From: Dehalococcoidia bacterium
Lineage (GTDB): Bacteria > Chloroflexota > Dehalococcoidia > UBA2979
Direction of reading: 5' to 3'
Assembly (NCBI GenBank): GCA_965204835.1
Contig: OZ242017.1
Span: 451,842 to 515,841 of the forward strand
Length of the DNA: 64,000 bases
In this document: positions 7,836 to 45,680 of the stretch, one piece after another
How the letters are laid out: each line of letters begins with the position of its first letter
Numbering within the stretch: the stretch's first letter is position 1
Made by a program: the position numbers and the translations under genes
The notes under the pieces: generated by a model
What the model saw: the letters and a program-made list of their open reading frames with translations, nothing else
Database searches by the model: none
What the model was told of the DNA's origin: nothing

Positions 7836-8732
7836 ATGAGCTCACTCGCAGATTCCGTGATCGTCACCAGTTCGAACGTGCGCGGCCAGCGGCACTGGCT
7901 GCTGGACGCCTCGATCCGCGTGCTCAAGAAGCCCGTCGGGCTGGCTTCCGCCCTCGTCATCGGCGTGCTCGTGGCCGCCGCCCTGCTGGCGCCGTACGTG
8001 GCGCCGTTCGACCCGATCGCCATCTCCATCGAGACGTTCCAGGCGCCGAACACCACCTACTTCTTCGGCACGGACGACCTCGGACGCGACATGTTCAGCA
8101 GGATCCTGCACGGCTCCCGCATCTCGCTCTACGTCGGCTTCCTCGCCGTGTGCCTGGGCTCGCTGGGTGGGGCGCTGGTCGGCCTCGTGAGCGGGTTCGC
8201 CGGCGGCTGGATCGACATGGTCATCCAGCGCGTCGTCGACGCCGTGCTGGCCTTCCCCGGCATCGTGCTCGCCATGTCCCTCGTGGCGGTGCTGGGCACG
8301 AGCACCACGAACGCGCTGCTCGCGATCGCGATCGTGATCATCCCGTTCCAGTCGCGCGTCGTGCGCGGCGCCGTGCTGTCGGTCAAGCAGAACGTCTACA
8401 TCGAGGCCGCCCAGACCATCGGGGCGACGCCCCAGCGCATCATGTTCCGGCACGTGCTGCCGAACGTGGTCGCGCCCATCCTGATCCTGATCAGCGCGTC
8501 GCTCGGGAACGCGATCCTGATCGAGGCGGGCCTGAGCTTCCTCGGACTCTCGACGCAGCCGCCGGAGCCGTCGTGGGGCCTGATGCTGTCCGGCACGGGC
8601 CGTCGCTACATGGAGGAGGCGCCGTGGCTGGCGATCTTCCCCGGCCTGGCGATCGCGATCACGGTGCTGGCGTTCAACCTGCTGGGCGACGTGATCCGCG
8701 ACGTGCTGGACCCGCGGCTGCGAGGCACCTAG
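7836..8732 (+). CDS. ABC transporter permease, DppC/OppC family
   Basis: 298-aa permease immediately downstream of the DppB-like gene. Confidence 0.85.
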   Translation: MSSLADSVIVTSSNVRGQRHWLLDASIRVLKKPVGLASALVIGVLVAAALLAPYVAPFDPIAISIETFQAPNTTYFFGTDDLGRDMFSRILHGSRISLYVGFLAVCLGSLGGALVGLVSGFAGGWIDMVIQRVVDAVLAFPGIVLAMSLVAVLGTSTTNALLAIAIVIIPFQSRVVRGAVLSVKQNVYIEAAQTIGATPQRIMFRHVLPNVVAPILILISASLGNAILIEAGLSFLGLSTQPPEPSWGLMLSGTGRRYMEEAPWLAIFPGLAIAITVLAFNLLGDVIRDVLDPRLRGT

Positions 8733-10801: not shown

Positions 10802-12670
10802 CTACTTGTCGATCCAGCCGTAGGCGATGATGTCGCCCCAGTCCTGGTAGATGTTCGTCGTGGAGAGCGCCCCGCCGAAGCGGATGCCGCGCAGCCACGG
10901 CTGGTAGACGAAGAAGCCGCCACCGCCGCCGATGACCGGGCGGTAGGCCTTCTCCAGCTCGTAGTTCCAGATCTCCTGGAAGATCGCCTTGCGGGCCTCG
11001 GGGTCGAGCTCCACCTGCTGCGCCTCGGTCAGCTCGTCGAGCTTCGGGTCGTTGAACCGCCAGCGGTTCCCCGGAGCCGTCGAGTGCATCGAGTTGTAGA
11101 AGTAGTTCTCGGCGTCGAAGCCGATGGTGCCCCATCCGGCGGTCGACACGTCCTCGAGCTGGCGGCCGACCCACGTCGAGTTGAACTCGGTGTAGTCGGC
11201 GGCGCCGCCCGTCATGGTGATCCCGACGTCGCGGAACATGTCCGTGAGGATGTCCGGGGTCTGCTCGTAGGCGGACGAGTACGGGAAGAAGATGTTGACC
11301 ATCTCCAGGCCCTCGGCGCCCGCGGCTGCCAGCAGCTTGCGGGACTCGTCCGGGTCGAACCGCGTCCACGGTCCGAGCAGGCCGTTCTCGACCGTCGGCT
11401 GCTCGTCCCAGACGAAGAGCCACGGGATGGCGTGCATGACCTGCCCGAGACCCTGGTAGAGGATCGTCATCAGCAGGTCGCGGTCGATCGCCAGTGAGAT
11501 CGCCTGGCGCACGCGCTCGTCCATGTACTTCGGGTTCTGCAGGTTCATGGCGAACCCGGTCCCGTTGGTGAGCGCGGTCAGGTTGATCTGGGTCTCGGGG
11601 TTGGTCTCCAGCAGGTTCTCGACCTCGCGGAGGTTACCGACGATGCCCTCGCCCGTGGCGACCTGCTCGGCGCGGAACGCCGCGAGGCGCGCGGCGCCGT
11701 CCGGCAGGTGCCGGAACTCGACGCCGTCGACCAGCACGTCGCGCTCCCAGTAGTCCGGGTTCGTGACGTAGGTGACCTTCTCGGCCTGGATGGCCTCGTC
11801 GAGGATCATCGGGCCCGTGCCCACCGCGGTGTTCTCGATCTCGCCGTTGTCCACCAACTCCTTCGGGTGGATCGACTGGTAGCAGCTCGCGAGCGGGCGG
11901 ATGAAGTCCGCGACCGCGCGCGAGAGCGTGATCGTCACGGTCTGGTTGTCCGGCGCCTCGACGCCGGCCGAGTTGAGCCAGTACCCCGTATGCACGCCCT
12001 CGACCGCGTAGCGGTCGTACGCGAACTTCACGTCCGAGGCGATGAACTGGCGCCCGTTCAGCGGGGCCACGTTCTGCCAGTAGACGTCGTCGCGGAGGTT
12101 GAACGTCAGGGACAGGCCGTCCGGCGAGCGCTCCCAGGAGTGCGCCAGCTCCGGCTCGATCTCGATGTTCGCGGGGTGCAGGTTCACGCCGCGGTTAAAC
12201 CCGAGGATCCGGTTGTAGACCATGTTGACGTAGCGGCCCGTGCCGCTCGCCGCCGTCTTCGTCGAGTCGAACGTCGAGATGTCCGTGCTCGCGCTGGAGA
12301 TGATGGTCCCGCCGGCCTTCGGCGTCTTGTCCGGCTCGGGGAAGTTGAACGGGAACGGCAGGTTCGCGTCCTGGATCAACTCGCCCCTGGGGAAGTCCGC
12401 CACCATGGCGTCGCCGTTGTCGTCACCGTCATCGGCGGCCGCCGTGGTCGTCGTCGTGGTGGTGGTCGTCGTGGACGTCGTCGATGTGCCACCGCCGCCC
12501 GAAGTCGAGCCGGCGCTGTCGTCGTCGTCGTCATCGCCGCCACAGCCCACGAGGGCGGCCGCAGCGAGGCCCGCGACTCCGATGGCGCTGCCTCGCAGTA
12601 GCGTGCGCCGGCTGGTGACGTTGCCGAACAACGTCGTCCAGTCGCGACCTTCGTCGCTATATTCCGTCAT
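10802..12670 (-). CDS. ABC transporter substrate-binding lipoprotein, family 5 (DppA/OppA-like), Tat signal
   Basis: N-terminus SRRTLLRG (twin-arginine) plus lipobox LVGC, then a poly-Asp and poly-Thr linker. SBP_bac_5-like body. GAAGGGGG precedes the ATG. Confidence 0.85.
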   Translation of the reverse strand: MTEYSDEGRDWTTLFGNVTSRRTLLRGSAIGVAGLAAAALVGCGGDDDDDDSAGSTSGGGGTSTTSTTTTTTTTTTAAADDGDDNGDAMVADFPRGELIQDANLPFPFNFPEPDKTPKAGGTIISSASTDISTFDSTKTAASGTGRYVNMVYNRILGFNRGVNLHPANIEIEPELAHSWERSPDGLSLTFNLRDDVYWQNVAPLNGRQFIASDVKFAYDRYAVEGVHTGYWLNSAGVEAPDNQTVTITLSRAVADFIRPLASCYQSIHPKELVDNGEIENTAVGTGPMILDEAIQAEKVTYVTNPDYWERDVLVDGVEFRHLPDGAARLAAFRAEQVATGEGIVGNLREVENLLETNPETQINLTALTNGTGFAMNLQNPKYMDERVRQAISLAIDRDLLMTILYQGLGQVMHAIPWLFVWDEQPTVENGLLGPWTRFDPDESRKLLAAAGAEGLEMVNIFFPYSSAYEQTPDILTDMFRDVGITMTGGAADYTEFNSTWVGRQLEDVSTAGWGTIGFDAENYFYNSMHSTAPGNRWRFNDPKLDELTEAQQVELDPEARKAIFQEIWNYELEKAYRPVIGGGGGFFVYQPWLRGIRFGGALSTTNIYQDWGDIIAYGWIDK

Positions 12671-12800
12671 GTAATGCCCCCTTCGGTTGGGTCCAGGTGC
12701 TTCGCATCCGCCTGTGCGACCCTGGGGAGGGCGCGATCGGCCGATGCGTCGTCACTTCGTACTCCCTTGCGCCCCCGAGCGCAAGTGAAACCGCGCACCG

Positions 12801-16896: not shown

Positions 16897-18711
16897 CTAC
16901 TTGTCGAGCCAGGCGTCCTGGATCTGGGCAGCGATCTCGGTGAACGAGTAGTTGATGCCCAGCGGACCCACGAACCGGACGCCTCGCAGCCATGGCTGGT
17001 AGAGGCTCCAGTACTGGGGAGCCGGCATGTCGATGCGGTACACCCGCTCGTGCATGCGATCCCAGATGTTGCGATGCAACTCCTTGCGCGCCTCCGGGTC
17101 GAGCTCGACCTTCTGCGCCTCCGCCCATGCGTCGATCTGCGGGTCCTCGATGTTGTAGCGGTTGGCCGCGGACTCGGAGTGGACCTGGGCGAAGAAGAAC
17201 GTGTCGGCGTCGAAGCCGTTGGCAGACCAGCCGTAGATCACGTCCTCGTAGGTGACCTGGATCAGCTGCGAGTTGTAGGACGTGTAGTCGAGCTTGGTGA
17301 CCTCGGCGTTGACGCCGACCGCGCCGAACAGCTCCTGCAGGATCTCGGCGAGCTGATCCCATGTCGCCGCGTAGTTGTGGTAGATCATCTCGAACGAGAG
17401 GTTCTCGGCGCCCGCTGCCTGCAGCAGCTTCTTCGCCTCGTCGGGCCGGTAGCCCCACCACTCGCCCAGCAGCCCCGACTCCGGCGTGGGCTCCTCGTCG
17501 AAGAGGAAGAACCACGGCAGGGTCGAGACCTGCGCTCCGTAGCCCTCGTAGGCGAGTTCGATCATGAAGTCGCGGTCCAGCGCCAGCGACAGCGCCCGGC
17601 GCACGCGCTCGTCCTGGTACGTCGAGACGGTCTTCATGTTGAAGGCGATCTGCGTCCCGGAGTTGACCGTCGGGCTCCACGTCCCCTTCACGTCCGGGTT
17701 CGTCTCCAGCAGCGCGTCGAGGTCCGCGACGGTGCTGGTCACGATCATCGCGTGATCGACCTGGTTCACGCGCATCGCCGCGCGCCGGGCTTGCTGGTCC
17801 TGCATCACGAGATGCTCGAGACCGTCCAGGAGCACCTCCTGCTGGAAGTAGTCCGGGTTCTTGGCGTAGAGCACGCGCTCGCCCGGCGACGACTCCTGCA
17901 TGATCATCGGCCCGGTGCCGATGGCGCGTTGCTCGATCGTCCCATCGTCGACGATCTCGCGAGGGTGGATCGTGAGATATCGGCTGGCGATCGGCGTGAG
18001 GAAGTCCGGCTGAGGCGACTTCATGTTCACCACGACCGTCAGGTCGTCCGGCGCCTCGATGCTGCTCACCGCGGTGAAGTACTGCGACTGCGCTCCACCC
18101 GCCGCGTAGCGGTCCCACGCGAACTTCACGTCGGCCGAGGTGAGGTCGCGGCCGTTCGTCGGGTCCACGTTATGGAACTTCACGCCATCGTTGAGGTGGA
18201 ACGTGTAGGACAGCCCGTCCTCCGCCCGTTCCCACGACTCCGCCAGTTCCGGCCGGAACTCGATCTTGAACGGGTCGGCGTCCGGGCCGGACACGAACCC
18301 GATCACCCGGTTGTAGGCCGCGCGACCGGGGGCGATCGTGCCACCCGCGGCCGAGACCGTCGGGTCGATCGGCCCGACGTTCCACGCGACGGCCTGCTTC
18401 AGTACGCCGCCCGGTTTCGGCGTGGCGCCCTCGGGCTCCGGGAACTGCAACGGGATCACGTTGCCGGCGGGTGTGACGAGCCCCTCGGGCTCGTCGGCCG
18501 CGGGCGCCTCGGTGGCCGCCGCGACCTGCGTGGCCGTCTCGGCCGGGGCCGCGGGCGCAACCGCGTCGTCGTCATCGTCGTCATCGCCGCCGCAGCCGAT
18601 CAAGGCCGCCGCAGCCAGACCCACTCCTCCGAGCAGGGCACCTCGCAACAGCGTCCGCCGGCCGTGCGCCGTCGCCCACCACTCGTCTGTGTACCGTGTA
18701 TCGCTGGCCAT
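16897..18711 (-). CDS. ABC transporter substrate-binding lipoprotein, family 5, Tat signal (paralog of 10802..12670)
   Basis: N-terminus GRRTLLRG plus lipobox LIGC, then a poly-Asp linker. GGAAGGAGGG precedes the ATG. Confidence 0.85.
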   Translation of the reverse strand: MASDTRYTDEWWATAHGRRTLLRGALLGGVGLAAAALIGCGGDDDDDDDAVAPAAPAETATQVAAATEAPAADEPEGLVTPAGNVIPLQFPEPEGATPKPGGVLKQAVAWNVGPIDPTVSAAGGTIAPGRAAYNRVIGFVSGPDADPFKIEFRPELAESWERAEDGLSYTFHLNDGVKFHNVDPTNGRDLTSADVKFAWDRYAAGGAQSQYFTAVSSIEAPDDLTVVVNMKSPQPDFLTPIASRYLTIHPREIVDDGTIEQRAIGTGPMIMQESSPGERVLYAKNPDYFQQEVLLDGLEHLVMQDQQARRAAMRVNQVDHAMIVTSTVADLDALLETNPDVKGTWSPTVNSGTQIAFNMKTVSTYQDERVRRALSLALDRDFMIELAYEGYGAQVSTLPWFFLFDEEPTPESGLLGEWWGYRPDEAKKLLQAAGAENLSFEMIYHNYAATWDQLAEILQELFGAVGVNAEVTKLDYTSYNSQLIQVTYEDVIYGWSANGFDADTFFFAQVHSESAANRYNIEDPQIDAWAEAQKVELDPEARKELHRNIWDRMHERVYRIDMPAPQYWSLYQPWLRGVRFVGPLGINYSFTEIAAQIQDAWLDK

Positions 18712-18914
18712 GAAGGCCCTCCTTCCGCGGCGCCGCGGAAGGGCCGCCCGCGCACATGGCCCGGATCAGGCGCAGGCTGCGCCTGTGGGCCGCTCCCGCG
18801 AGCACGGAGTCATCCTACACTTCTCGGAATAACATTTGTTGTTGTTTCTGAACGTAACGGGACAGAACTCGCCAGTTGGAATCCGGGTTCAGGTCCTGTG
18901 CGCGCGGCGGTCCG

Positions 18915-20231
18915 CTACGGGATCGAGGGGTCGTAGTCCATCCCGGCGTGCTCCGTATCGACGAAGTGCTCGTACTCCTCGTCGGAGTAGCCGAGCAACT
19001 CCTTGTAGACGTACTCGTTGTCCTCGCCCAGGCGCGGGGCGGCGTGGCGCAGCCGGTTGGGGGTGCGCTCGGCGCTCCACAGCACGCCGGGGTACTCGTG
19101 GGCGCCCGCCTCGGGGTGCTCGAGGGTCTGGAAGTACTCGCGCTCGCGCAGGTGAGGGTCGGAGTAGGCGTCGGCCTCGTTGAGGATCGCGCCCGCTGCG
19201 ACGCCCGCCGCCTGCAGCTGCTGCATGGCCTCGACCGGGTCCTGGAAGATCGACCAGGTCAGGATCTCCGTGTCGGCCTCGTCGTGGTGGGCGCGACGCG
19301 CCTCGGCGGTTGCGAAGCGCTCATCCGCGGCGAGGTCGTCGCGGCCCATGACGCCGCAGAGCGCGCGCCACTCCTCGTCGGTCCCGATGCTGATCGAGAG
19401 CCAGCGGTCCTCGCCGGCGCAGGGGTAGACGCCCTGCGGCGCGTAGACGAGGTCGCGGTTGCCGCGGTAGCCGCTGAGCCGGCCGTTCATCGAGTAGTCG
19501 AGGATGTACTCGCCGAGGTAGCCGGTGAAGTTCTCGGCGGTCGCGCACTCCAGCTGGACGCCCTCGCCGGTGCGGCGGCGGTGACGCAGCCCGGCCATGA
19601 ACGCCATCGCGCCCGACACCCCGGAGGCGGGGTCGGCGAGCAGGCTCGTGCCGCTCTCGTCGGCGAGCGCGCCGGGGTAGCCGAACACCGAGTAGTGCCC
19701 GGACACCGCCTCCATGTGGCTGCCGAAGGTGCGGTACGCGCGGTACGGCCCGGTCAGGCCGAACGCGGGCAGGCGCACGAGGATGAACCGCGGGTTGATC
19801 TCCGAGATCCGCTCCCACGAGACGCCCGCGCGGTCCATGGTGTTCGGCGCGTTGTTCTCGACGAGGCCGTCGGAGACCTTGAGCAGCCGCTCGAAGACCT
19901 CCTGCCCCTCGGGGCGGGTGAGGTCCATGGTGACGGAGCGCTTGTTGCGCGCGTGGACGTTGAACAGCGCGGCGCGGTTCCATGGCCGGTCGCCCGGCTC
20001 ATGGTCCGGGTAGCCGCCCACGCCCCCCTGGCGCACCAGCTCCGGGCTCGGCCGCGCGAGGCCGCCACGGGTCGTCGAGGGGAAGAACTTCGTCGACTCG
20101 ACGCGGATCACCTCGGCGCCCCACTCGGAGAGCAGCTGGGTCGCGTACGGGCCGGCCCACACGACGGTGAAGTCGAGGATGCGGATGCCTTCGAGGGGGA
20201 GGCGCTTGCCGGAGCCGTTCCCGGTGGTCAT
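18915..20231 (-). CDS. CoA transferase, family III (CaiB/BaiF)
   Basis: 438 aa. Its start overlaps the upstream CoA-transferase stop (ATGA). Homologous to the C-terminal half of the fused gene at 42518..45043. Confidence 0.85.
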   Translation of the reverse strand: MTTGNGSGKRLPLEGIRILDFTVVWAGPYATQLLSEWGAEVIRVESTKFFPSTTRGGLARPSPELVRQGGVGGYPDHEPGDRPWNRAALFNVHARNKRSVTMDLTRPEGQEVFERLLKVSDGLVENNAPNTMDRAGVSWERISEINPRFILVRLPAFGLTGPYRAYRTFGSHMEAVSGHYSVFGYPGALADESGTSLLADPASGVSGAMAFMAGLRHRRRTGEGVQLECATAENFTGYLGEYILDYSMNGRLSGYRGNRDLVYAPQGVYPCAGEDRWLSISIGTDEEWRALCGVMGRDDLAADERFATAEARRAHHDEADTEILTWSIFQDPVEAMQQLQAAGVAAGAILNEADAYSDPHLREREYFQTLEHPEAGAHEYPGVLWSAERTPNRLRHAAPRLGEDNEYVYKELLGYSDEEYEHFVDTEHAGMDYDPSIP

Positions 20232-21451
20232 GACACCGCCCCCGACCCGCGCAGCTCGGCGATCGCGGCGGCGTCGAGGCCGAGCGTCTCGCCGAGGATC
20301 TCGTCGGTGTGCTCGCCCAGCAGCGGGGCTCGCTGCCGTGGTGGGGGCGGCCACTCGTGCGCGCTCGAGCGGTACGTGCGGCCCGCGTAGGTCTGGGGGC
20401 CGGTGGTCGGGTGGTCGATGGTCTGGAAGAAGGCGCGCTCGCTGAAGTGCGGGTCGGTCAGCAGCTCGGAGATGGTGTTCACGGGCCCTCCGTAGACGCC
20501 GGCGTCCTCGACGGCCTGGCGGATCTCGCGCTTCGAGTGGCTCAGCATCCACTCGCCGACAAGCGCCTGGAACTGCGCCATCGGCTCCTCCTGGCCCCGC
20601 CACGCGGGGTCGAGCCAGTTGGGATCCTCGAGGAGCTCGGGGTGGCCGATCATCTCGGCCATCGCGGGCCAGCGCGGGCCGACGACGGTGGTGAAGAAGA
20701 AGCCGTCGTCGCCGGTCGGCCAGATGCCGGAGCCGGGCGTCTGGCCGGCGGGCGGGCGGCCCGACGTCTCGCCGGTGTACTGGTAGTTGAGCAGGCTGGT
20801 CGTGCGACGGTCGATGAGCCCCATGAACGTCTCGAAGAAGTTGACGTCCAGGTGGTCGCCCTCGCCGCTGGCGTCGGCGCCCCAGAGCGCGATGTTCGTC
20901 GCCGCCGCGGCGGTCGCGCCGACCTGGTAGGCGGGGGTGTGGCCCGCCGTCTTGAGCGGCTCGCGGTCCGGGCTGCCCGTGTAGAGCATCGGGCCGCCCA
21001 TGCCCCAGATCGTGAGCTCGGAGCCCTTCCAGTCGCGGTACGGCCCGCTCTGCCCGTAGTTGCTGATCGAGGTCACGACGATCGCCGGGTTCACGGCACT
21101 CAGCGCCTCGTACCCCAGCCCGAGGTCGTCGAGGGTGCCGGGGCTGAAGTTCTCGATCACCACGTCGGCCCACCCGGCGAGCCGCAGCACGGTCTCGCGG
21201 CCGCCCTCGGACGCGAGGTCGATGGCGATCGAGCGCTTGTTGGTGTTGAGGTGCAGGAACAGCGCGGAGCGCTCGATGCCCGGCTCGTCCTCGAAGAACG
21301 GCGGCATGAGGCGCGCGGGGTCGCCCTCGCCGGGGCGCTCGACCTTCACGATGTCCGCGCCGTAGTCGCCGAGCACGCGCGTGCAGTAGGGGCCGGCGAC
21401 GTGCCAGCTCAGGTCGAGCACGCGCACATCCGAAAGCGGGAGGTCCACCAT
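20228..21451 (-). CDS. CoA transferase, family III (CaiB/BaiF)
   Basis: 407 aa. GGAG is 7 nt before the ATG. Homologous to the N-terminal half of the fused gene at 42518..45043. Confidence 0.85.
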   Translation of the reverse strand: MVDLPLSDVRVLDLSWHVAGPYCTRVLGDYGADIVKVERPGEGDPARLMPPFFEDEPGIERSALFLHLNTNKRSIAIDLASEGGRETVLRLAGWADVVIENFSPGTLDDLGLGYEALSAVNPAIVVTSISNYGQSGPYRDWKGSELTIWGMGGPMLYTGSPDREPLKTAGHTPAYQVGATAAAATNIALWGADASGEGDHLDVNFFETFMGLIDRRTTSLLNYQYTGETSGRPPAGQTPGSGIWPTGDDGFFFTTVVGPRWPAMAEMIGHPELLEDPNWLDPAWRGQEEPMAQFQALVGEWMLSHSKREIRQAVEDAGVYGGPVNTISELLTDPHFSERAFFQTIDHPTTGPQTYAGRTYRSSAHEWPPPPRQRAPLLGEHTDEILGETLGLDAAAIAELRGSGAVS

Positions 21452-21568
21452 CACTCACTCCTCGGTCTGCGAGGCGGCGATTATCGCACGCGCGGGCGGC
21501 GCGTCGAACACACGCCGTCGCGTGATGCACGGAGTGCTCGGCGCGATGCTGGGGTGGGGGGTGTCAGT

Positions 21569-22283: not shown

Positions 22284-23753
22284 TCAGGCCGAGGCGGCCG
22301 TGTCCGCGTGGCCGTCTGACCCGCGCCATGCCGCCTCGGCGCGCTCGGCGATGGCGCGGGTGAGGCCGTCGAAGATGCGGACGTGGATGGGCCACAGCGC
22401 GTACCAGTAGAGCAAGCCCGGCATCCCCGCGGGGTGGAAGTGCGCCTGCGTGGCGATGCTGGCGCCCTCGCCGACCGGGGTGACGACGAACTCCAGCACG
22501 GCCGAGCCCGGCAGCTTCATCTCCGCCAGCAACGTCAACCGCCGCCCCGGCTCCACCGCCTCGACGCGCCACCAGTCGAGCGTGTCGCCGACGCGCAGGT
22601 CGTGCGGGTGGCGTCTGCCGCGCCGCATCCCGACTCCGCCGGCGAGGCGGTCGAGGAGCCCTCGGAGCCACCACAGGCGGTCGGCGTAGTACCAGCCGCG
22701 GTCGCCGCCGATGGACGCGACCTGCGCCCACACCGCCTCGGGCGGCGCGTCGACGCGCGCCTCGGACCGCGAGCGCTTGTCGTAGAACGAGATGTCGTGG
22801 CGCTGCTGGCGGAACCGGAACGCGCCCTCCGTCCAGCGCGCGGGCGGCCCGGCCGTCTCCTTTTCCTCGTCGAGGGCGGCCCGCACGGCCTGCTCGTAGG
22901 TGTGCAGGCGGATCGGGATCGCCTCGCGCAGCGGCCACGGGTTCGTCGACACCAGGTCGTGCGCGAGCCCGTCGATGAGCGGGCGCGCGACGCTCGCGGG
23001 CGCGGCCGTGATGAGGTCGAGCCAGTACGAGGAGAGGCGTGGGCTGAGCACGGGCACCGGCAGGATGAAGAGCGGCCGCTCCGCCACGCGCGCGAACTGC
23101 TGCATCAGCTCCTGGTAGGTGAGCGTCTCCAGCCCGACCGCGTCGTACGTGTGGCCCTCGGTCTCCTCGTGCTCCGGCAGCCGCACGAGGTAGTTGATGA
23201 GGTCGTCGAGGGCGATCGGCTGGCTGCGCGACCGCACCCAGCGCGGCGTGACCATGACCGGCAGGTGGTAGACGAGGTCGCGGATCACCTCGAAGGCGGC
23301 GGAGCCGGGGCCCACGACGATCCCGGCGCGCAGCTCGGTGACGGGCACGGAGCCCGCGCGCAGCAGGTCGCCGGTCTCGCGCCGCGAGCGCAGGTGCGCG
23401 GACGCCTCGCCCTCGGGCTGCAGGCCGCCGAGGTAGATGATGCGCTGCACGCCCGCGCGCTCGGCCGCCTGGCGGAACGTCGTGGCGGCGACGCGGTCGA
23501 TCTCCGCGAAGCGCCGCCCCGCGGCCATCGAGTGGACGAGGTAGTACGCGATCTCGACGCCATCGAGCGCGGCGTCGAGCGACGTGCCGTCGAGCGCGTC
23601 GGCGGCGACGATTTCGACGCCCTCCCACCCGCGCGCCTCGAGCGTGTCGCGTCGCCGCGAGGAGGCGCGGACGCGGTGGCCGCGCGCGGCCAGCTCGGGG
23701 ACGAGGTGCGTCCCCACGTACCCGCTCGCGCCCAGGACCAGGATGTTGGACAT
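22284..23753 (-). CDS. NAD(P)H-binding SDR-like domain fused to a DUF2867/SRPBCC-like domain
   Basis: N-terminus ILVLGASGYVGTHL (Rossmann fold). 489 aa. Confidence 0.7.
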   Translation of the reverse strand: MSNILVLGASGYVGTHLVPELAARGHRVRASSRRRDTLEARGWEGVEIVAADALDGTSLDAALDGVEIAYYLVHSMAAGRRFAEIDRVAATTFRQAAERAGVQRIIYLGGLQPEGEASAHLRSRRETGDLLRAGSVPVTELRAGIVVGPGSAAFEVIRDLVYHLPVMVTPRWVRSRSQPIALDDLINYLVRLPEHEETEGHTYDAVGLETLTYQELMQQFARVAERPLFILPVPVLSPRLSSYWLDLITAAPASVARPLIDGLAHDLVSTNPWPLREAIPIRLHTYEQAVRAALDEEKETAGPPARWTEGAFRFRQQRHDISFYDKRSRSEARVDAPPEAVWAQVASIGGDRGWYYADRLWWLRGLLDRLAGGVGMRRGRRHPHDLRVGDTLDWWRVEAVEPGRRLTLLAEMKLPGSAVLEFVVTPVGEGASIATQAHFHPAGMPGLLYWYALWPIHVRIFDGLTRAIAERAEAAWRGSDGHADTAASA

Positions 23754-23819: not shown

Positions 23820-26800
23820 TTACGGCGAAGCGACCATCGTCGGCTCGTGCTCGGCCTCGGCGGGCGCGCCCGGCGTGACGAGGCGGCTGGTCGCGCCGTT
23901 GCGCACCACCTCGACGCGGTCGGGGAGGCGCTCGGCGACCTCCGGGATGTGCGAGATCACGCCGACGAGCCGCTGTCCGCCCGCCAGCATCTCGAGGCCC
24001 CCGATGGCGGTGTCGAGCGAGTCCTGGTCGAGCGCCCCGAAGCCCTCGTCCAGGAACAGCGACTCGAGCGACATCGCGCCGCCGCGCCCGGCGATCTCCG
24101 GCAGCCGCTCGGACAGCGCGAGGGCGAGCGCGAGGCTCGCGAGGAACGTCTCGCCGCCCGACAGCGTCCTGACCGAACGGCGCTCGTCGCCGTTGAGGCG
24201 GTCGACCACCGAGAACGCCTCGCCCTCCACGACCAGGCGGTAGCGCCCGCTCGACAGCGCGAGCAGGCGCTCGCCGGCGTCGACGGCGAGGAGGTGCATC
24301 GCCTCGCGCTGCACGTAGGCGATGAAGCGGTCGCGGCGCAGTTCGAGGGCGAGCGAGTCGGCGAGCTGTGCGTTGCCGTCGTACGTCTCGGCGTCGCCGC
24401 GCATCTGCTCGGCGCGCTCGGCGTCGGCGCGGGCGGTCTGGAGTCGCTGCGCCGCGAGGTCTCGCTCGCGCTCGGACGCGCCGAGGGCTGCCCGGTGCTC
24501 CTCGATGATGCCGGGCACGCGCCCGGCGTCGGTGACGCCCTCGACGGCGGCGGCCGTCCACGCCTCGTCGAGTCGTTGGCGCGCCTCGACGGCTGCGCCG
24601 CGCGCTGTCTCGGCGTCGCCCGCGCGTCGCTCGACGGCGGACTCGGCACGTGCGAGGGCTTCACGGGCCGCCTCGACGCGCGCATCCGCGCCGGCCAGTT
24701 CCTGCGCGGCGGCGCCGAGTGCGTCTCCGATCTCGCGGTGGCGTGCGGCTTGCTGCTGCGCCGCTGTGAGCGCGGCGCGAGCGGCGTCCGCGTCGACGTC
24801 CGCCGCGCCGAGTGAGGCGAGGTGTTCCCGCGCGCGTGCCAGCTCGGCGTCCGCCCGCGTGCGGCGCTCGTTCGCGCGCGTCACATCCGCTTCCGCTGCG
24901 CGCGATCGCTCGGCTGCGGAGCGGGCCTGCTCGGCGGCAGCCGTCACGTCAGCGCTCGCCCCACGATGGCGCTCGATCGCCGCGTCGAGTGCAGCCCGCA
25001 CCGCGTCAGCCTCGCCCGCCTCGCCATCGCGCCCCTCCACCGCACCAAGCGCGTCGCCAATGGAGGCGTGCGAGATGCGAAGCGCGGCTGCCGCCTCGCC
25101 CGCCTGGGTGCGTGCGGCCTCGGCAGCCTCGGCGCGGTCGCGCGCCTCGCCACCCGCAGCCGATGCCGCGGCGACGGCCGCCGCGAGCGCGTCGGCCTCG
25201 ACGCCAGACTGCGCGGCCTCGTCGCGGAGCGCCGCGAGGTCGGCGGTCGCGCGGTCGGTGGCGGCCGACGCCTGCGCGGCGTTCGCCTCGGCCGCTGCGA
25301 GGCTCGTCGCCGCCACCGCCTGCTCCGCCCGGGCCTCGCGCAGCGCTGCCTCGGCGGCTTCGAGGGCTGCTTTTGCCGCGTCGAGGGCGGGGGCGTCCTG
25401 CAGCTCGATGTGCTCGATGGGCTCACCGCAGACGGGGCAGATGTCCCCGGGCTGGAGGCCACGCTGGAGCGCGAGCGCCGCGTCCTGCTGCTGCGCGTGC
25501 TCGAACGCGTCGGCGCGCGTCTCGCGCTCCGACTCCGCGTCGCTCAGCCGTGTGCCCGCAGCGTCCGAGGCCTGCCCGGCCGCCTCGTGCGCCCCGCGCG
25601 CCTCCTCGTGCTCCCGTCCGGCGGCGACGAGCACGGCCTGCTGCTGCCGCAGCCGCTCGTCGAGCGCGGCGAGGTGGCGTGCCCGCTCGTCGTAGTCCGC
25701 GGCGGCGCGCTCCGCGGCCACGCGCTCGTCGTCGGCGGTGTTCGCGGCCTCGCCGAGCGCCCGCTCCGTCGCGAGCGCCGCGGCAGCCGCCGCCGCGAGG
25801 TCCGCGAGGGCGGCCTGCTGCGTCGCCTCGGCCCGGCCGCGTGTGGCGTCCGCGGCGTCCGACTCGCCCCGGAGGCGCGTCGCCTCATCTGCCGCGCGCT
25901 CGGCATCCTCGATCGCCTCACGCTGCTCGGCCTCTGCGGCGTCGAGGGCACGCCGGGCGGCCTCGCGCTGGTCGAGCATCTGCACCTCGCGTTCGAGGCG
26001 GCGGTGCTCCGGCTCGTCGTAGGCGAGCTCGGTGCGCGCGGCGTCGAGGCGTGCGTGCTCGGCCTGCGCCTGCTCGCGGCCCTGCTCGTCGCGGGCGAGG
26101 GCGTCGCGGGCGGCCTCGGCGTCACGGGTCGCTTCGGCGCTTGCGGCGGCGGCGAGCGCCGACGTGCGTTCGGCCTCGGTGCTCGCCGACGCCTGTTCGG
26201 CGAGCGCGGCGAGCAGCGCTGTGCGACCGTCAAGCGCCTCGGCGCGCGCGGCGAGCGCCGCGTGCTCGCGTTCGAGGTGCGCAATCGTCTCAGGCGTGGC
26301 GATGTCGAGGCGTTCGATCTGCTCGCGCAGCGCATCCCCGGCGCTGCGCGCGCCCGCGGCCCGGTTGCGCGCGGCGCGCCCCGCCTCCTCGTAGCGCCCG
26401 AGGCCAAGCAGGCGCGTCAGGATGTCGCGGCGTTGCGGCTCGTCGCCGCGCAGGAACGTGTCGAACGCGCCCTGCGGCAGCAGCACCGTCTTGGTGAACG
26501 TCGCGAAGTCGAGCCCGAGCAGGTTCTCGATGCGCTGGGTGACCTCGCGCGAGCGGTCCTCGAGCGGCTCGAACGAGCCGTCGACGCGCTGATGCTCCAG
26601 CCGTGCGCCGAGGTTGCCGGGAGCCTGCCGGCTCACGCGGTAGCGGTCGCCGCGCACGCTGAAGTCGAACTGGACGGCCATCGCCTTCGAGCCGTGCGTG
26701 ATGAGCTGGCGCGTCTCGCGCCCCACGCGCGGCACCTGGCCGTAGAGCGCCCACGTCATCGCGTCGAGCAGCGAGGACTTGCCCGCGCCCGTCGGGCCGG

Positions 26801-26891
26801 TGATCGCGAACAGGCGCCGCTCCTCGAAGTCGAGGACGGCGGGCTCCTTGAACGACGTGAAGCCGCGCACTTCCAGGCGGAGCGGCCTCAC
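23820..26891 (-). CDS. sbcC: SbcC/Rad50-type double-strand-break repair ATPase
   Basis: Walker A in FAITGPTGAGKSSLLDA, a long Ala/Glu/Arg coiled-coil, Cys hook PVCGEP, C-terminal signature LSGGE and Walker B FLDEGFGALD. The GTG start overlaps the sbcD stop (GTGA). Confidence 0.8.
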   Translation of the reverse strand: MRPLRLEVRGFTSFKEPAVLDFEERRLFAITGPTGAGKSSLLDAMTWALYGQVPRVGRETRQLITHGSKAMAVQFDFSVRGDRYRVSRQAPGNLGARLEHQRVDGSFEPLEDRSREVTQRIENLLGLDFATFTKTVLLPQGAFDTFLRGDEPQRRDILTRLLGLGRYEEAGRAARNRAAGARSAGDALREQIERLDIATPETIAHLEREHAALAARAEALDGRTALLAALAEQASASTEAERTSALAAAASAEATRDAEAARDALARDEQGREQAQAEHARLDAARTELAYDEPEHRRLEREVQMLDQREAARRALDAAEAEQREAIEDAERAADEATRLRGESDAADATRGRAEATQQAALADLAAAAAAALATERALGEAANTADDERVAAERAAADYDERARHLAALDERLRQQQAVLVAAGREHEEARGAHEAAGQASDAAGTRLSDAESERETRADAFEHAQQQDAALALQRGLQPGDICPVCGEPIEHIELQDAPALDAAKAALEAAEAALREARAEQAVAATSLAAAEANAAQASAATDRATADLAALRDEAAQSGVEADALAAAVAAASAAGGEARDRAEAAEAARTQAGEAAAALRISHASIGDALGAVEGRDGEAGEADAVRAALDAAIERHRGASADVTAAAEQARSAAERSRAAEADVTRANERRTRADAELARAREHLASLGAADVDADAARAALTAAQQQAARHREIGDALGAAAQELAGADARVEAAREALARAESAVERRAGDAETARGAAVEARQRLDEAWTAAAVEGVTDAGRVPGIIEEHRAALGASERERDLAAQRLQTARADAERAEQMRGDAETYDGNAQLADSLALELRRDRFIAYVQREAMHLLAVDAGERLLALSSGRYRLVVEGEAFSVVDRLNGDERRSVRTLSGGETFLASLALALALSERLPEIAGRGGAMSLESLFLDEGFGALDQDSLDTAIGGLEMLAGGQRLVGVISHIPEVAERLPDRVEVVRNGATSRLVTPGAPAEAEHEPTMVASP

Positions 26892-28087
26892 CGGAGCGCC
26901 GCCGCTTCGCCCGCGGCCTCCGCCGCGCGCGCCTCGTCGCCCTCGACGAGCAGCTCCTCGAAGAGCCCGACGAGTTCCGGCGCGGGGTCCGCGCCGTGCT
27001 GCGCCTGGTAGTAGCGCGTGAACAGCTCGGCGTCGCTCAGGTTGGCGATCGCCTCGACCGCCTGGTCGTCCTCGGGCGCGTCGTACTCGAGCTGGACGTC
27101 GACGGCGTTTGGAAGCTCGGCGCGGACGCGCTCGGCGATGCCCGGCTCGGGCCGCTCGACATCGAGGCGGACGCGGAGGTGCGACCCGCGGTGCTCCTCG
27201 GCCTGCGCGAGCACCTCGTCGAGCGTGCCGCGCAGCTCGGCGAGGGGGCGGCCCTTGGTGAGCGGGACGGTCGTCGGCGTCACTGGGCGGTTCGGCTCCG
27301 CGTCGATGATGCGCACGAGCTTCTGCTGGCCGCGTTCGCCGAAGTCGAGCTGCAGCAGCGAGCCGCTGTACGCCGTCGGGATGCTGTGCTCGATCTCCTG
27401 GGGCTCGTGCACATGGCCGAGCGCGATGTACTGGGGCGTCGCGGGCAGGCTGGCGGCGGTCACGCCGTAGGTCTGGCCGATGTGCAGCTTGCGCTCGGAA
27501 CCGTCGACGCGCGCAATACGGGCGTTGTCGACGAAGATGTGCGTCGCGAGGATGTTGACCGTGCTCGTGTCCACGAACGGGTCGCACGACGCGCGCAGGA
27601 TCTCCGCGACGCCGTCCGCGTAGGCGCTGAGCCAGTCCTCCTCCAGCCCCATGATCCCCGCGGCGTCCACGTAGCGGCCCTCGGTGATGAAGGGCACGGC
27701 GGCGATGCGGGCGATGTGATCGCGGCCCTCGATGGTGAGCACGCCGCCCGCGTTCGGGCGTCGCACCTCCCACTGCGTCTGCACGCCGAGCAGCTCGGAG
27801 AGCAGGCCGAGCGCGCGCAGCTTGCGGGGGTTGTCGTGGTTCCCGGCCAGCAGCACCACCTGGATGTCGTGGCCGATGCACTCGCGCAGCGCCTCGAACA
27901 CGAGCCGGTCCGACTCCGCCGAGGGGGCATGATGGTCCCAGATGTCGCCGCACACCAGCATCGCCTCGACCTGCTCCTGGCGGGCGATGTCGATGACCTC
28001 GGCGAGCACGGCCTCGAACTCCGCGACGCGGCTGCGGCCGCGCATGGTGCGGCCGACGTGCCAGTCGGCGGTGTGGAGCAGCCTCAC
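26888..28087 (-). CDS. sbcD: SbcD/Mre11-type nuclease
   Basis: N-terminus VRLLHTADWHVG with calcineurin-like phosphoesterase motifs GDIWDH and GNHD. GTGA overlap with the upstream HerA-like gene. Confidence 0.85.
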   Translation of the reverse strand: MRLLHTADWHVGRTMRGRSRVAEFEAVLAEVIDIARQEQVEAMLVCGDIWDHHAPSAESDRLVFEALRECIGHDIQVVLLAGNHDNPRKLRALGLLSELLGVQTQWEVRRPNAGGVLTIEGRDHIARIAAVPFITEGRYVDAAGIMGLEEDWLSAYADGVAEILRASCDPFVDTSTVNILATHIFVDNARIARVDGSERKLHIGQTYGVTAASLPATPQYIALGHVHEPQEIEHSIPTAYSGSLLQLDFGERGQQKLVRIIDAEPNRPVTPTTVPLTKGRPLAELRGTLDEVLAQAEEHRGSHLRVRLDVERPEPGIAERVRAELPNAVDVQLEYDAPEDDQAVEAIANLSDAELFTRYYQAQHGADPAPELVGLFEELLVEGDEARAAEAAGEAAALR

Positions 28088-29841
28088 TCGAACCTCGCGA
28101 ACGGGTCCGTGGTCTGCGCGACCTCGGAGGGGCGCGTGGCCCACGCGGGGTGGGGGAAGCGCAGCAACAGCGGCACCGGGATCTCCGGCTGCGCGAGGAT
28201 CATCGAGCCCGGCTTGAGCAGCGAGGCGCGGGCGCGCGCGGCGGGCGTCAGGAAGCCGTACTCGCCGCGCTGCGCCTCGGCGGCGTCCAGGCGGCCCGCC
28301 ACGCGGTACGCGCAGTTCGCCACCACGCGCGACTCCACCTCGCTGGCCGTCTGCTGCGCGCCGATCAGCACGACGCCGAGCGAGCGGCCGCGCTCGGCGA
28401 TGTCGAGCAGCACGTCCTTGATCGGGCTGCGGCCCTCGCGCGGGGCGTACTTGTTCAGCTCGTCGAGCACGACGAGCATGAGCGGCCGCGGCGAGCCGCT
28501 GGCCTCCTTGCGCTCGAACTCGCGCTTCAGCATCACGCCCACGACGAAGCGCTGCGCGCGGTCGTGCAGGCGGTGGATGTCGACGACCGTGACCTGCGCG
28601 TGGCCCGTGTCGATGGCGTGCGCGGCGTCGTCCTCGGAGGCCTGCCCGCGCACGAGGTGGCCGACGTACGGCTTGGCGGCGTCGAGGCGGCGCAGGAACG
28701 CCTGCACCGTGCCCGCCGCCGCGCGGCCGGCCCACGTCCCGCCCTCTTCGGGGTCGGTCATCAGCCCGATCGCGTCGACGAGCTGGTCGAAGTCCGTGAC
28801 CACCTCGCCGCCGATCTCCACCGTGGGCGCGTCGAGGGGGAGCGAGATGCGCGCGGCGAGCGCGAGCTGCGCCTCCACCTGCTGCACGACGAGGCCGAGC
28901 TGCGAGCGCTCATCGTCGGCGTCGGCGAACAGGAAGCGCAGGTAGCGCTCGGCGCAGAACTCGCGCAGCGTCCAGTAGAAGCCCGTCACGCCCTCCATGC
29001 GCGAACCGGTCTCCGGCGCGGGCGTGCCGCGCCGCGCGGGTGCGTAGAACGAGACGGAACGGAACGGCTCGGCGGGCAGCCCGAGGCGCGCGTAGTCCTC
29101 GCGGTCATCGTCGGCGAGCTGCGAGTTGGGCTTGTCGAGGAACAGCAGGTCCTCGCCCTTCACATTGAAGATCAGCGAGCGCGTGTTGGCGGCCTCGGGG
29201 CCGAGCGTGCCGCTCTCGAACAGCGCGTGGAGCAGGAACATGGCGTACGAGGTCTTGGTCGCGACGCCGGAGATGCCCGAGATGTTGACGTGCGCGCCGC
29301 GCGTCCCGTTGAGGAACTCGAGGTTGGCGTAGACCCGCTCCCCGTCGCGCGAGAGGCCGAACGGGACGCGCTCGGCCATCTGGTCGAAGAACAGCGCGCG
29401 GTCGCGCGCATCGCCGCGCGCGAGCTGGACCGGCTGGCCCGGCCGCGGCGGCACGAAGATCTCGGGCTCGACGCGCGTGACCGAGACATGTGCGGTCACG
29501 GCGGGCTCGGCCGGGAGCAGCCCCTCGCTGGCGAGCGCCACGTCGGAGTCGAAGCGCACGCCCTCCTGCACCGCGCGCACCTCGTCGACCACGCCGTAGA
29601 AGTCGACGGCCTCGGCAGGGCTGCCGGGCGGCAGCGGCGAGCGTGCGTGGACCACGTCGTCGAGCTGGAGGTAGCGGTCGCGGTCGACGAAGACGGAGAA
29701 GCCGAGCGGTGTCGCCGCCGCGTTCTCCATGCCGAGTACGAGCCCGGCGGGCGTCGAGGGGTCCTGTGCCGCCAGGGCGGGCGCCTCGAGCACCTCGGCC
29801 TGCGCCGGCGCGTTGCCGTCCGTGTCGTGGTTCGTGGTCAT
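28084..29841 (-). CDS. HerA/FtsK-class P-loop ATPase (DUF87-like)
   Basis: 585 aa with P-loop GISGVATKTS and Walker B LMLVVLDELNKY. Its start shares 1 nt with the upstream gene's stop (TGATG). Confidence 0.65.
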   Translation of the reverse strand: MTTNHDTDGNAPAQAEVLEAPALAAQDPSTPAGLVLGMENAAATPLGFSVFVDRDRYLQLDDVVHARSPLPPGSPAEAVDFYGVVDEVRAVQEGVRFDSDVALASEGLLPAEPAVTAHVSVTRVEPEIFVPPRPGQPVQLARGDARDRALFFDQMAERVPFGLSRDGERVYANLEFLNGTRGAHVNISGISGVATKTSYAMFLLHALFESGTLGPEAANTRSLIFNVKGEDLLFLDKPNSQLADDDREDYARLGLPAEPFRSVSFYAPARRGTPAPETGSRMEGVTGFYWTLREFCAERYLRFLFADADDERSQLGLVVQQVEAQLALAARISLPLDAPTVEIGGEVVTDFDQLVDAIGLMTDPEEGGTWAGRAAAGTVQAFLRRLDAAKPYVGHLVRGQASEDDAAHAIDTGHAQVTVVDIHRLHDRAQRFVVGVMLKREFERKEASGSPRPLMLVVLDELNKYAPREGRSPIKDVLLDIAERGRSLGVVLIGAQQTASEVESRVVANCAYRVAGRLDAAEAQRGEYGFLTPAARARASLLKPGSMILAQPEIPVPLLLRFPHPAWATRPSEVAQTTDPFARFE

Positions 29842-30842
29842 CAGGAGGCCTCGGCAATCGTGGCGAAGGTGGCGCCGGCCGGATCGAGCGCCGCGGCGAT
29901 GCGGCGGCGGATCCACAGCCGGTCGCCGAGCCGGCGGGTCAGGAGCTGCTCGAGCGCCCCGACGGGCGTCAGGTTCTGGGGCGCGCGCGGGTCACGGATC
30001 GGCGACGACGCGAGTCGAGGCACCACCCGCGCGGTCTGGTCGGCCAGCGCCGCCGCGTCGACCCGCGGCACCGCGCCCGGCGTCTCGAGCCGCACGACGC
30101 CGGCGAGGTGGTGGTACTGCGTGCCCATGTCGGCGATGCGCAGGTACCACGCGAGCCGGTCGCGTTGCCCGCTCTCCTCGGCGATGCGGAATAGCGGCGT
30201 GCGCTCACCCACCGCGAGCTCGCCGAGCAGGGCGAGCCGGTCGGCGCCGAGGTACCAGCGGTGCGTGCGCTTGATGTAGCCCACGACCCGCGGGCCCGGC
30301 GCGCGCAGGCGCAGCGGACCGTCGACGATCGTGAGCGTCGAGGCGTCCTCGGACAGCTCCTCGGCGAGCCGCGCCTCCTCGTCCAGCATCAGCCGGTTGA
30401 GCACGGCGACGAGGTCGGCCGGGGCGCGCGCCCCGGCGGGTGTCTCCGCGCGGAAGTGCAGCGTGGCGGCACCGACCGCGACCGTCCGACCAGCCCCGCC
30501 GTCGCCGGCCTGCAGGTAGCGTCGACGCACGCGCAGCACCCGCTCGTCATCGAGGATCCGCGCGCTCGTGCCCTCGCAGCGCACGGCCCCGACGGCGTAC
30601 GAGCCGAAGAGCCCGAAAGCGATCGCTCCATCCGCGCGGTCGTCGATGGCGTGCGCCTCGACACGCCGCACGCCGTCGACGATCTGCACCGCGGGGAGGG
30701 GCGCAGCATCCGGGCGGATGGCGCGCCAGGCTCCCTCGACATCGGCGTCGACGAGGGACGCGCCGTCGGCGGCGGCAGCGTCGGTCTCGGCCTCGATGCC
30801 GCTGCCGTACTCGGGGGACCAGGGGACGAGGCGAAGCGGCAT
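29841..30842 (-). CDS. NurA-like nuclease candidate; assignment tentative
   Basis: First gene of the coupled four-gene operon. Contains IVDG and TIVDGPL segments reminiscent of NurA DGS motifs. Start taken at Met 64 of ORF 29841..31031. Confidence 0.4.
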   Translation of the reverse strand: MPLRLVPWSPEYGSGIEAETDAAAADGASLVDADVEGAWRAIRPDAAPLPAVQIVDGVRRVEAHAIDDRADGAIAFGLFGSYAVGAVRCEGTSARILDDERVLRVRRRYLQAGDGGAGRTVAVGAATLHFRAETPAGARAPADLVAVLNRLMLDEEARLAEELSEDASTLTIVDGPLRLRAPGPRVVGYIKRTHRWYLGADRLALLGELAVGERTPLFRIAEESGQRDRLAWYLRIADMGTQYHHLAGVVRLETPGAVPRVDAAALADQTARVVPRLASSPIRDPRAPQNLTPVGALEQLLTRRLGDRLWIRRRIAAALDPAGATFATIAEAS

Positions 30843-31211
30843 CGCTGTGGCGGTGGCTCCGGCGGGGAGTGCCTTCCGGCGCAGCGCAGTATACGTCAGT
30901 ACATCCGTACTACGCACGCGATTGAACCCGCTGATGAGCCCGAAGCTCGACCGAGTGGCACCGGAACCGGTAGCGTGGATCCATGGACTCGAGCACAACG
31001 CCCCGGTGCGCACCACAGGACCGTCGCCCACGCGACGCCTCCGGCAACCGCAGCCCCCGTTACCGCCTCGCCGACCTCAGCGTGGGCATGGCGGAGGACG
31101 AGGATCCGCTGGAAGCGTACTCGTGGGAGGACCTCCGCGAGATCATCTACGAGTCACGCGGCGGCTGACGCCCGTACTGCCGCTAGCGCCCCCGCGCCGT
31201 AGGCTCGACCC

Positions 31212-42356: not shown

Positions 42357-42517
42357 CGCGTCCTCCGATCGTGTGGTCGCGGGAGTGGCCGCCACGATAC
42401 AGCGCCCGATGAGCCCTCGGCGCACCCGACGGGTCGGAGGCCCTCGGACGGCGCGAGGCCGCTCCCGCGCGTGTATGCTCCGCGCCAGCGAGGGCTCCTC
42501 GCCGCCGGGGGACTCCC

Positions 42518-45459: not shown

Positions 45460-45535
45460 TGGCGCCCCCGGGAGGATTCGAACCTCCGGCCTTCGGATTA
45501 GAAGTCCGTTGCTCTGTCCACTGAGCTACAGGGGC
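45460..45535 (-). tRNA. tRNA-Arg (anticodon TCT)
   Basis: Reverse-complement cloverleaf: acceptor GCCCCTG/CGGGGGC (one G-U pair), anticodon loop CTTCTAA, T-loop TTCGAAT, CCA. Confidence 0.85.
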
Positions 45536-45638
45536 GATGTGCGAGGCGACAGTGGCCGAACCATCGTACCGCGCCCGCATGCCCGGTGGCGCCCGGGCGC
45601 GGCCGATTTCACGAATGTAATTCCAATCACTTATATAG

Positions 45639-45666
45639 TTGCTTCTTCTAACACAGTGGTTATAAT
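45639..45666 (+). promoter_or_regulatory. near-consensus sigma70-type promoter TTGCTT-N16-TATAAT in an AT-rich island, about 15 nt upstream of the surface-protein ATG
   Basis: Seen directly. The surrounding ~70 nt are strikingly AT-rich for this genome. The leader is very short and has no SD. Confidence 0.5.
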
Positions 45667-45680
45667 GAGCCCCCATCACC

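Follow-up and report, generated by a model that had tools for sequence, protein, structure and literature searches.

A 64-kb stretch of the genome of a Dehalococcoidia bacterium (contig OZ242017.1; hereafter the window) carries on its minus strand the genes nurA, herA, sbcD and sbcC, chained to one another by overlapping stop and start codons. These four genes probably form a chromosomal DNA-damage-inducible operon for the processing of double-stranded DNA (dsDNA) ends, in which SbcCD (Mre11-Rad50) is combined with the HerA-NurA translocase-nuclease. We establish here what the four genes encode, that their catalytic motifs are intact, that the unit is conserved, and that a putative operator sequence stands upstream of nurA and is footprinted in relatives.

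Four overlapping genes for NurA, HerA, SbcD and SbcC

The genes and two associated promoter elements are listed in Table 1. An earlier note, made from the sequence, had described four same-strand genes linked by TGATG, GTGA and GTGA overlaps, and this proved correct base for base. At the nurA/herA junction (CTCCTGATGACC), the herA ATG overlaps the nurA TGA by one base to give TGATG; the herA/sbcD (TTCGAGTGAGGCTG) and sbcD/sbcC (CTCCGGTGAGGCCG) junctions are both GTGA overlaps. The window is about 71% GC and long open reading frames (ORFs) crowd every frame. Third-position GC content (GC3) is 0.91-0.97 in the four operon frames, a coding signature for a genome of this composition. Long plus-strand ORFs over the same DNA were dismissed as high-GC artefacts, and a plus-strand ORF placed by a GC3-based gene caller over the Ala-rich coiled-coil region of sbcC was overruled by homology and by the GC3 of the true frame. 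The start calls are backed by the NurA N-terminus, MPLRL(L/V)PWSPEYGSG, which agrees with that of homologues, and by SbcD motif I, which lies at residue 8 as in homologues.

Table 1. Operon genes and putative promoter elements, in window coordinates.
Feature	Coordinates	Strand	Description
nurA	29841-30842	minus	ATG start, 333 aa + stop; bacterial-type NurA nuclease, RNase H-like fold
herA	28084-29841	minus	ATG start, 585 aa; bacterial-type HerA hexameric dsDNA translocase/ATPase
sbcD	26888-28087	minus	GTG start, 399 aa; Mre11-family nuclease
sbcC	23820-26891	minus	GTG start, 1023 aa; Rad50-family SMC-like ATPase, zinc hook
putative LexA (SOS) operator	30898-30911	minus	perfect palindrome AGTACGGATGTACT, spanning -69 to -56 relative to the nurA ATG
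putative -10 hexamer TATACT	30888-30893	minus	on the nurA side of the palindrome at a spacing of 4 nt, ~45 nt before the nurA ATG; assigned from conservation

The product of the first gene, described previously as NurA-like, is indeed recognised as NurA by profile, sequence and predicted fold. It scores 33 bits against Pfam PF09376 over residues 110-291 (gathering score, 21), and most of its homologues carry a precomputed PF09376 annotation. By sequence it matches Deinococcus radiodurans NurA (PDB 7f6d_H) at an E value of 2e-35 and T. maritima TM1739 at 8e-5. An AlphaFold2 model (predicted local distance difference test, pLDDT, 84.7; predicted template-modelling score, pTM, 0.83) was submitted to Foldseek; the best match was a solved NurA, 7f6d_G of D. 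radiodurans (E 9e-21, TM 0.71), and the next was TM1739 (E 1e-13). Alignments of 49 orthologous sets show the expected catalytic residues of all four proteins to be at least 96% conserved. For NurA the conserved candidates are D56, E156, D174 and the C-terminal D284/R286/N290/E298 block, the acidic residues among them aligning, in a sequence alignment, with the VDG and DGP motifs of D. radiodurans NurA (DrNurA).

The second gene had been proposed to encode a HerA/FtsK-class ATPase. Along its whole length its product matches D. radiodurans HerA (DrHerA; PDB 7f6d_B), query residues 29-575 pairing with chain residues 12-602 at an E value of 5e-141, and the HerA family profile finds DrHerA in the PDB at 2e-200. 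The Walker A (GISGVATKT, with K196/T197), KGED (E230) and Walker B (VLDELNKYAPREG, D460/E461) segments are identical between the two proteins, and these residues are invariant in the orthologue alignment. They align with the DrHerA residues named as K175/T176, a catalytic residue printed as D220, and D487/E488 (PMC9960219), indicating that the ATPase and catalytic motifs are intact and upholding the proposed class. The profile check suggested in the earlier note gave a divided answer, with NurA above the PF09376 threshold and HerA matching no Pfam model at E < 0.1, the HerA/DUF87 models included. Against the archaeal HerA equivalog NF040819 of NCBIfam it scored 11.8 bits (cut-off, 970), and the matches of NCBIfam and PADLOC HerA models were sub-threshold and confined to its last ~110 residues. 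Neither phmmer nor the HerA family profile recovered the archaeal HerA chains in the PDB; a link to archaeal HerA by sequence was for this reason given up, the relationship resting on published structures. Judged by sequence, gene 2 is orthologous to bacterial HerA and lies outside the archaeal HerA equivalog. There is also an annotation gap here, bacterial-type HerA having no Pfam model and no NCBIfam model that reaches its cut-off. Among the records examined, HerA is labelled ‘ATP-binding protein’ in those of NCBI and ‘hypothetical protein’ in one GenBank plasmid record, NurA is labelled ‘hypothetical protein’, and the gap extends to a RefSeq Streptomyces plasmid record.

Genes 3 and 4 had been called SbcD (Mre11) and SbcC (Rad50 with a zinc hook), and all the motifs of both families are present. 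SbcD matches PF00149 (Metallophos; 46.9 bits), PF12320 (SbcD_C; 44 bits) and TIGR00619 sbcd (155.7 bits, cut-off 77.65), and its five phosphoesterase motifs are conserved (D8/H10, D48, N83/H84, H183 and H225/H227). SbcC exceeds the gathering scores of AAA_23 (79 bits) and SMC_N (44.6 bits) and conserves Walker A K38, Q140, the central hook C485-P-V-C488, the signature S911GGE, Walker B D948/E949 and H981. Its best NCBIfam matches are bacterial sbcc models, but it scored 255.7 bits against the curated TIGR00618 sbcc, below the cut-off of 478.5. SbcC is a divergent member of the family, its coiled coil, which is rich in Ala, Arg and Glu, being the likely cause. SbcD and SbcC both score three to four times higher with bacterial than with archaeal Mre11/Rad50 models. 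Together with the failure to detect archaeal HerA, this indicates that the proteins of the operon are all of the bacterial type and argues against its recent acquisition from archaea.

Conservation of the unit and comparison with known systems

A scan of a genome collection gave 80 loci, with HerA 55-73% identical. We regarded as informative the 47 loci whose sequence reaches 6.5 kb or more beyond herA on the downstream side and 1.2 kb or more on the upstream side. All four genes lie on one strand in 44 of these. The three others are L010 (Blastocatellia), with nurA-herA only, and L037 and L051, where herA is alone, with none of the other three genes within 10 kb; these exceptions resemble the state of Deinococcus and Thermus. 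The best match among representative genomes is a Thermoflexus hugenholtzii metagenome-assembled genome (MAG), with 73% identity in HerA, and the close relatives of the locus are Chloroflexota MAGs. Four closer relatives (L081-L084; NurA 69-83% identical) retain the operon, and two of them also retain the flanking ubiE and DUF2867 genes. A missing NurA fold, an ATPase other than HerA or an unconserved cluster, each named in the earlier note as grounds for abandoning its reading, were none of them found.

Four full-length genes are present in 48 loci and occur in two orders. The order of the window, nurA-herA-sbcD-sbcC, is found in 17 loci of Chloroflexota, Acidobacteriota, Solirubrobacterales, Dormibacterota and Kofleriaceae, with an SbcC of ~1000 aa. 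The order herA-sbcD-sbcC-nurA is found in 31 loci of Acidimicrobiia, Nitriliruptoria, Micromonosporaceae, Gemmatimonadota and Saprospiraceae, with an SbcC of ~780-930 aa. The herA-sbcD-sbcC core is fixed across both orders and nurA alone moves, standing either first or last; many of the junctions between genes measure -4 or -1 nt. Carriers belong to seven phyla among the fetched loci and, by way of a plasmid, to Cyanobacteriota, so at least eight phyla in all; the four-gene arrangement is therefore not the rarity in bacteria that it had been taken for. Pairwise distances of the four proteins correlate (r 0.81-0.91, Mantel p 0.001; 0.61-0.89 within each order), which is consistent with inheritance of these sequences as a unit. 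Two plasmids carry the cluster as well, a linear one of 451 kb from Streptomyces and a conjugative one of 255 kb from Sphaerospermopsis. At some Acidimicrobiia loci, genes stand between herA and sbcD; we considered and rejected them as extra components, as they are opposite-strand, unrelated metabolic insertions.

Genes 1 and 2 are orthologous to the D. radiodurans NurA-HerA pair (PDB 7F6D; PMC9960219), which shares with them the ATPase motifs described above, the NurA C-terminal RAPQNL block and an operon with nurA directly upstream of herA. In the D. radiodurans pair a translocase acting on dsDNA drives a nuclease that depends on Mn, and by homology the window pair would work alike. In Deinococcus and Thermus, however, sbcD and sbcC are unlinked to nurA-herA, whereas the window has four overlapping genes, apparently under LexA-type regulation, unlike D. 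radiodurans. A published parallel is Oceanithermus profundus (PMC5448004), in which sbcD and sbcC lie downstream of nurA-hepA(herA) as in the window, although it belongs to a different phylum, Deinococcota. Blesa et al. 2017 mention this nurA-hepA-sbcD-sbcC arrangement in one sentence and read it as a secondary recruitment of sbcDC (PMC5448004). Our survey suggests instead that the four genes are usually linked, with Thermus and Deinococcus as exceptions. The SbcCD proteins of E. coli and B. subtilis belong to the same family, share its catalytic motifs and are likewise encoded by sbcD before sbcC with overlapping codons, but canonical sbcDC stands without herA and nurA.

The archaeal herA-mre11-rad50-nurA cluster of Sulfolobus, Pyrococcus and Thermococcus resembles the window in bringing the same four activities together in one cluster, which in archaea is co-transcribed, and in the order of its ATPase-Mre11-Rad50 core. 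It differs in that nurA comes last in archaea and first in the window, and in that the window proteins are of bacterial type. On the archaeal chromosome, too, the order is herA-mre11-rad50-nurA, and the herA-first bacterial variant is therefore a closer mirror of the archaeal cluster than the nurA-first order of the window. The archaeal order had been given in the earlier note as nurA-herA-mre11-rad50; the published listing is herA, mre11, rad50, nurA (PMC4351679). All four genes are essential in S. islandicus (PMC4351679), they are co-transcribed in archaea, where Mre11 interacts with HerA (PMC2288612), and the archaeal cluster is described as induced by ultraviolet light (PMC5448004), a behaviour to which we liken the damage-regulon motifs found upstream of the bacterial cluster.

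Promoter motifs and genomic surroundings

The palindrome upstream of nurA is the sole perfect AGTAC-N4-GTACT in the 64 kb, against a background rate of 0.035 per kb for palindromes of this class. It conforms to RGTACnnnDGTWCB, the LexA consensus derived by experiment for cyanobacteria (PMC2248561), which matches the window twice against 0.12 matches expected and which may not be the consensus of the host. The operator is footprinted in relatives despite diverged upstream sequence, reading AGCACGGATGTACT in L081, AGTACGGATGTGCT in L082 and AGTACGAATGTGCT in L083, each before TATACT. In L084, L003, L004 and L006, a GAAC-N4-GTTC box of the classical Gram-positive type occupies the same promoter position. 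The unchanged TATACT stands at the same place in L081, L082, L083, L084, L001, L002 and L003, in surroundings that diverge. We infer from the sequence that LexA binds the operator. The second match to the LexA consensus, GGTACGATGGTTCG at 45557-45570 on the minus strand, lies ~20 nt upstream of tRNA-Arg(tct) (45460-45535, minus) and ~110 nt upstream of a 1149-aa ORF, and is probably due to chance. Terminator-like hairpins found in a terminator scan fall inside coding sequence and are hence uninformative.

Herein the window represents one of two types of promoter. In 16 herA-first loci, assigned to Actinomycetota by their record titles (L016, L020, L025, L031, L038, L045, L053, L054, L060, L067, L069, L071-L073, L077 and L079), a 22-nt motif TGTC-N12-TA-N3-T, of the type recognised as the PafBC motif tGTCgg(N10)tA(N3)T (PMC8635444), lies close to the predicted herA start, against a background of 0.019 per kb per strand. 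In 12 of the 16 the motif starts 28-30 nt ahead of the predicted start codon, a proximity that implies short or absent leaders. One of these loci, L079, retains the motif without sbcD, sbcC or nurA in the 3 kb available. Neither PafBC nor LexA motifs were found upstream of the Streptomyces and Sphaerospermopsis plasmid copies. Gemmatimonadota loci L011, L024 and L042 share a conserved block ~60 nt upstream of herA (TGCCGGTCCGGGGCCG..GCTTAT.TTG), which suggests a further lineage-specific promoter or operator. In our view, nothing speaks more strongly for a role in DNA repair than the apparent convergence of two unrelated damage-response regulators, LexA and PafBC, on one operon.

The operon is flanked in the window by genes for ABC-transporter parts, CoA-transferases, an acyl-CoA dehydrogenase, a UbiE methyltransferase, FeoB and a histidine kinase, and by five tRNAs; none of the ~30 window ORFs scanned is a defence, phage or transposon gene. 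A NmrA/DUF2867 gene (22284-23753) follows sbcC on the same strand after 66 nt. It was rejected as a fifth member, being absent in L081, L084 and the distant loci, and is found downstream of sbcC also in L082 and L083. In L082, a PIN-toxin/antitoxin pair (7271-7965) stands between ubiE and nurA, and the promoter region is displaced with operator and TATACT kept. Tandem PaREP1-family genes occur near the operon in L082 (635-1466) and L083 (1019-2090). Elsewhere in the window, there are two family III CoA-transferase genes (42413-45043, plus; 20228-21454, minus), one of them an 876-aa tandem double-domain fusion, and two paralogous SBP_bac_5 solute-binding proteins (10802-12751 and 16897-18765). 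The 1149-aa ORF mentioned above (45600-49130 region, plus strand; ORF at 45681) contains carbohydrate-binding CBM_4_9 and lamin-tail domains, and the 80-nt leader ahead of it (TTATATAGTTGCTTCTTCTAACACAGTGGTTATAATG) is strikingly AT-rich for a genome of 71% GC.

Proposed function, alternative explanations and significance

In the operation that we envisage, LexA would occupy AGTAC-N4-GTACT between the -35 region and the TATACT -10 in the undamaged cell and keep transcription low. Self-cleavage of LexA, stimulated by RecA on single-stranded DNA, would then de-repress a single polycistronic mRNA, and the 1- and 4-nt stop/start overlaps would couple the translation of neighbouring genes, giving joint synthesis of all four proteins. 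Co-transcription is suggested by these overlaps, by the presence of one promoter/operator upstream of the whole set and by the precedent in archaea. SbcCD would recognise and tether broken, blocked or hairpin ends and open or clean them by its endonuclease and 3'-5' exonuclease. A HerA hexamer loaded on the duplex would pump DNA into a NurA dimer, which would degrade the 5' strand and so expose a single-stranded 3' tail on which RecA could load. For the enzymology we draw on D. radiodurans HerA-NurA, shown in vitro to resect DNA ends (PMC9960219), on the archaeal four-protein system (PMC2288612) and on SbcCD, whose activities are likewise known from experiments in other organisms. That SbcCD and HerA-NurA cooperate in bacteria we infer from their linkage.

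Several observations weigh against this proposal. The bacterial four-gene operons are known from sequence alone. The operator is of the GTAC type and not GAAC-N4-GTTC, so its match to the specificity of the host LexA is presumed, and a simple sigma-70 scan upstream of nurA returned no full consensus promoter and no consensus -35. SbcCD is not linked to herA in L010, L037 and L051, and in some Acidimicrobiia opposite-strand genes separate herA from sbcD; co-transcription is thus not obligatory. Plain vertical descent of unlinked genes would give correlated protein distances equally well. A caveat for the mechanism is that nurA and herA mutants of Deinococcus show mild phenotypes (PMC4663267).

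Could the two modules share a damage-inducible promoter and yet function independently, SbcCD on hairpin or blocked ends and HerA-NurA, for example, in RecJ modulation or fork processing? Deinococcus and Thermus manage without the linkage, DrHerA interacts with RecJ (PMC4663267), and at some loci the linkage is lost or genes are inserted between herA and sbcD. We nevertheless find this unlikely. Whichever the gene order, no feature of the cluster is more constant than the junction of herA with sbcD, whose codons often overlap. Archaeal genes are listed with the same core order, Mre11 binds HerA there, and nearly all informative loci retain the four genes. Even less should be expected of a role in DNA pumping unrelated to breaks, such as segregation, division or DNA transfer, with HerA acting like its relative FtsK and the nucleases as accessories. 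HerA is tightly and conservedly linked to two nucleases and to an end-tethering ATPase of the Rad50 type, the unit lies behind damage-response promoters, and no division or transfer genes are found nearby, which makes such a role highly improbable.

The earlier note had offered a defence system as its alternative, and a HerA ATPase with a nuclease and an SMC-like ATPase does recall anti-phage or anti-plasmid systems such as Sir2-HerA, DUF4297-HerA, Lamassu and Wadjet. PADLOC gave weak matches, its HerA models at E 2e-6 or weaker to the C-terminal 110 residues and LmuB to SbcC at E 6e-24, but no PADLOC model spans any of the four proteins in full. The fold search returned TdpAB as a distant NurA-like match. 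Sir2-HerA and DUF4297-HerA (PDB 8xau, 8wiv and 9c1m) and TdpAB (8wfd) also pair a hexameric HerA-type ATPase with an effector nuclease; they show only weak C-terminal similarity to the window protein (E 1e-5 to 0.4), however, and have other partners and no SbcCD. The cluster is sometimes carried on large plasmids, one Streptomyces copy adjoining TIGR02678/TIGR02680/DUF2397 genes, which we take to resemble Wadjet components, and an AbiEii gene lies near the operon in L081. Such plasmids are rare, with six of 72,556 plasmid records matching by tblastn, and only two of 50,697 phage records match, both at 27-31% identity; a scan of viral contigs found no relative. In place of a defence island, the operon has metabolic and transport genes and tRNAs for neighbours, with ubiE and DUF2867 synteny common to relatives, and neither the window nor the relatives show mobile or defence genes in this conserved metabolic context. 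HerA is strongly conserved across phyla (55-73% identity), unlike fast-evolving defence genes, and the promoters bear DNA-damage-regulon motifs. As the searches yielded nothing beyond generic SMC/HerA similarity and rare large plasmids, we set the defence reading aside as very unlikely. On the Streptomyces sp. BB1-1-1 plasmid (L085; NZ_CP134205.1, 1-6400), herA-sbcD-SMC-nurA is divergent from an ImmA/IrrE-family metallopeptidase gene and the TIGR02680/TIGR02678/DUF2397 set mentioned above. IrrE-type proteases control the Deinococcus radiation response, and this neighbour could be a third regulatory solution or simply reflect a defence neighbourhood.

An operon for dsDNA end processing remains the reading that we prefer for the window. 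The locus is not the first of its kind and joins a known, thinly documented arrangement; the Oceanithermus report (PMC5448004) was the only earlier mention of the bacterial four-gene arrangement that we found, and Iyer et al. 2004 and Constantinesco et al. 2004 might hold others. A 2015 paper wrote of a link between sbcCD and HerA-NurA that it ‘remained to be uncovered’ (PMC4663267), and as late as 2026 bacterial herA-nurA was described as restricted to Deinococcus-Thermus (PMC12977600). The earlier note's view that HerA-NurA pairs occur in few bacterial lineages agrees with that literature (PMC4663267, PMC12977600) but not with our survey. The LexA-type operator and the PafBC promoters are new in this analysis. 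Along with the breadth of the unit, its invariant herA-sbcD-sbcC core and the missing annotation model for HerA, they appear under-appreciated rather than categorically new.

The unit is spread far wider than the repair literature consulted here assumes and, outside the Deinococcus and Thermus models, both modules almost always lie together in what is probably one translationally coupled operon, behind two unrelated types of predicted damage-response promoter. We consider it an evenly balanced question whether SbcCD-HerA-NurA is a third bacterial pathway of double-strand break end resection, beside RecBCD/AddAB and RecQ-RecJ, and the normal state of bacterial HerA-NurA, wired independently into LexA and PafBC regulons in Chloroflexota, Acidobacteriota, Actinomycetota, Gemmatimonadota, Dormibacterota, Myxococcota, Bacteroidota and Cyanobacteriota. 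The open question of whether bacterial HerA-NurA works with Mre11-Rad50 becomes testable in cultured carriers, namely Longispora, Catellatospora, Oceanithermus, Thermoflexus and Streptomyces sp. BB1-1-1. If such a pathway exists, the Deinococcus and Thermus systems would be atypical, unlinked derivatives, and the Mre11-Rad50-HerA-NurA partnership would be common to both prokaryotic domains and no archaeal speciality.

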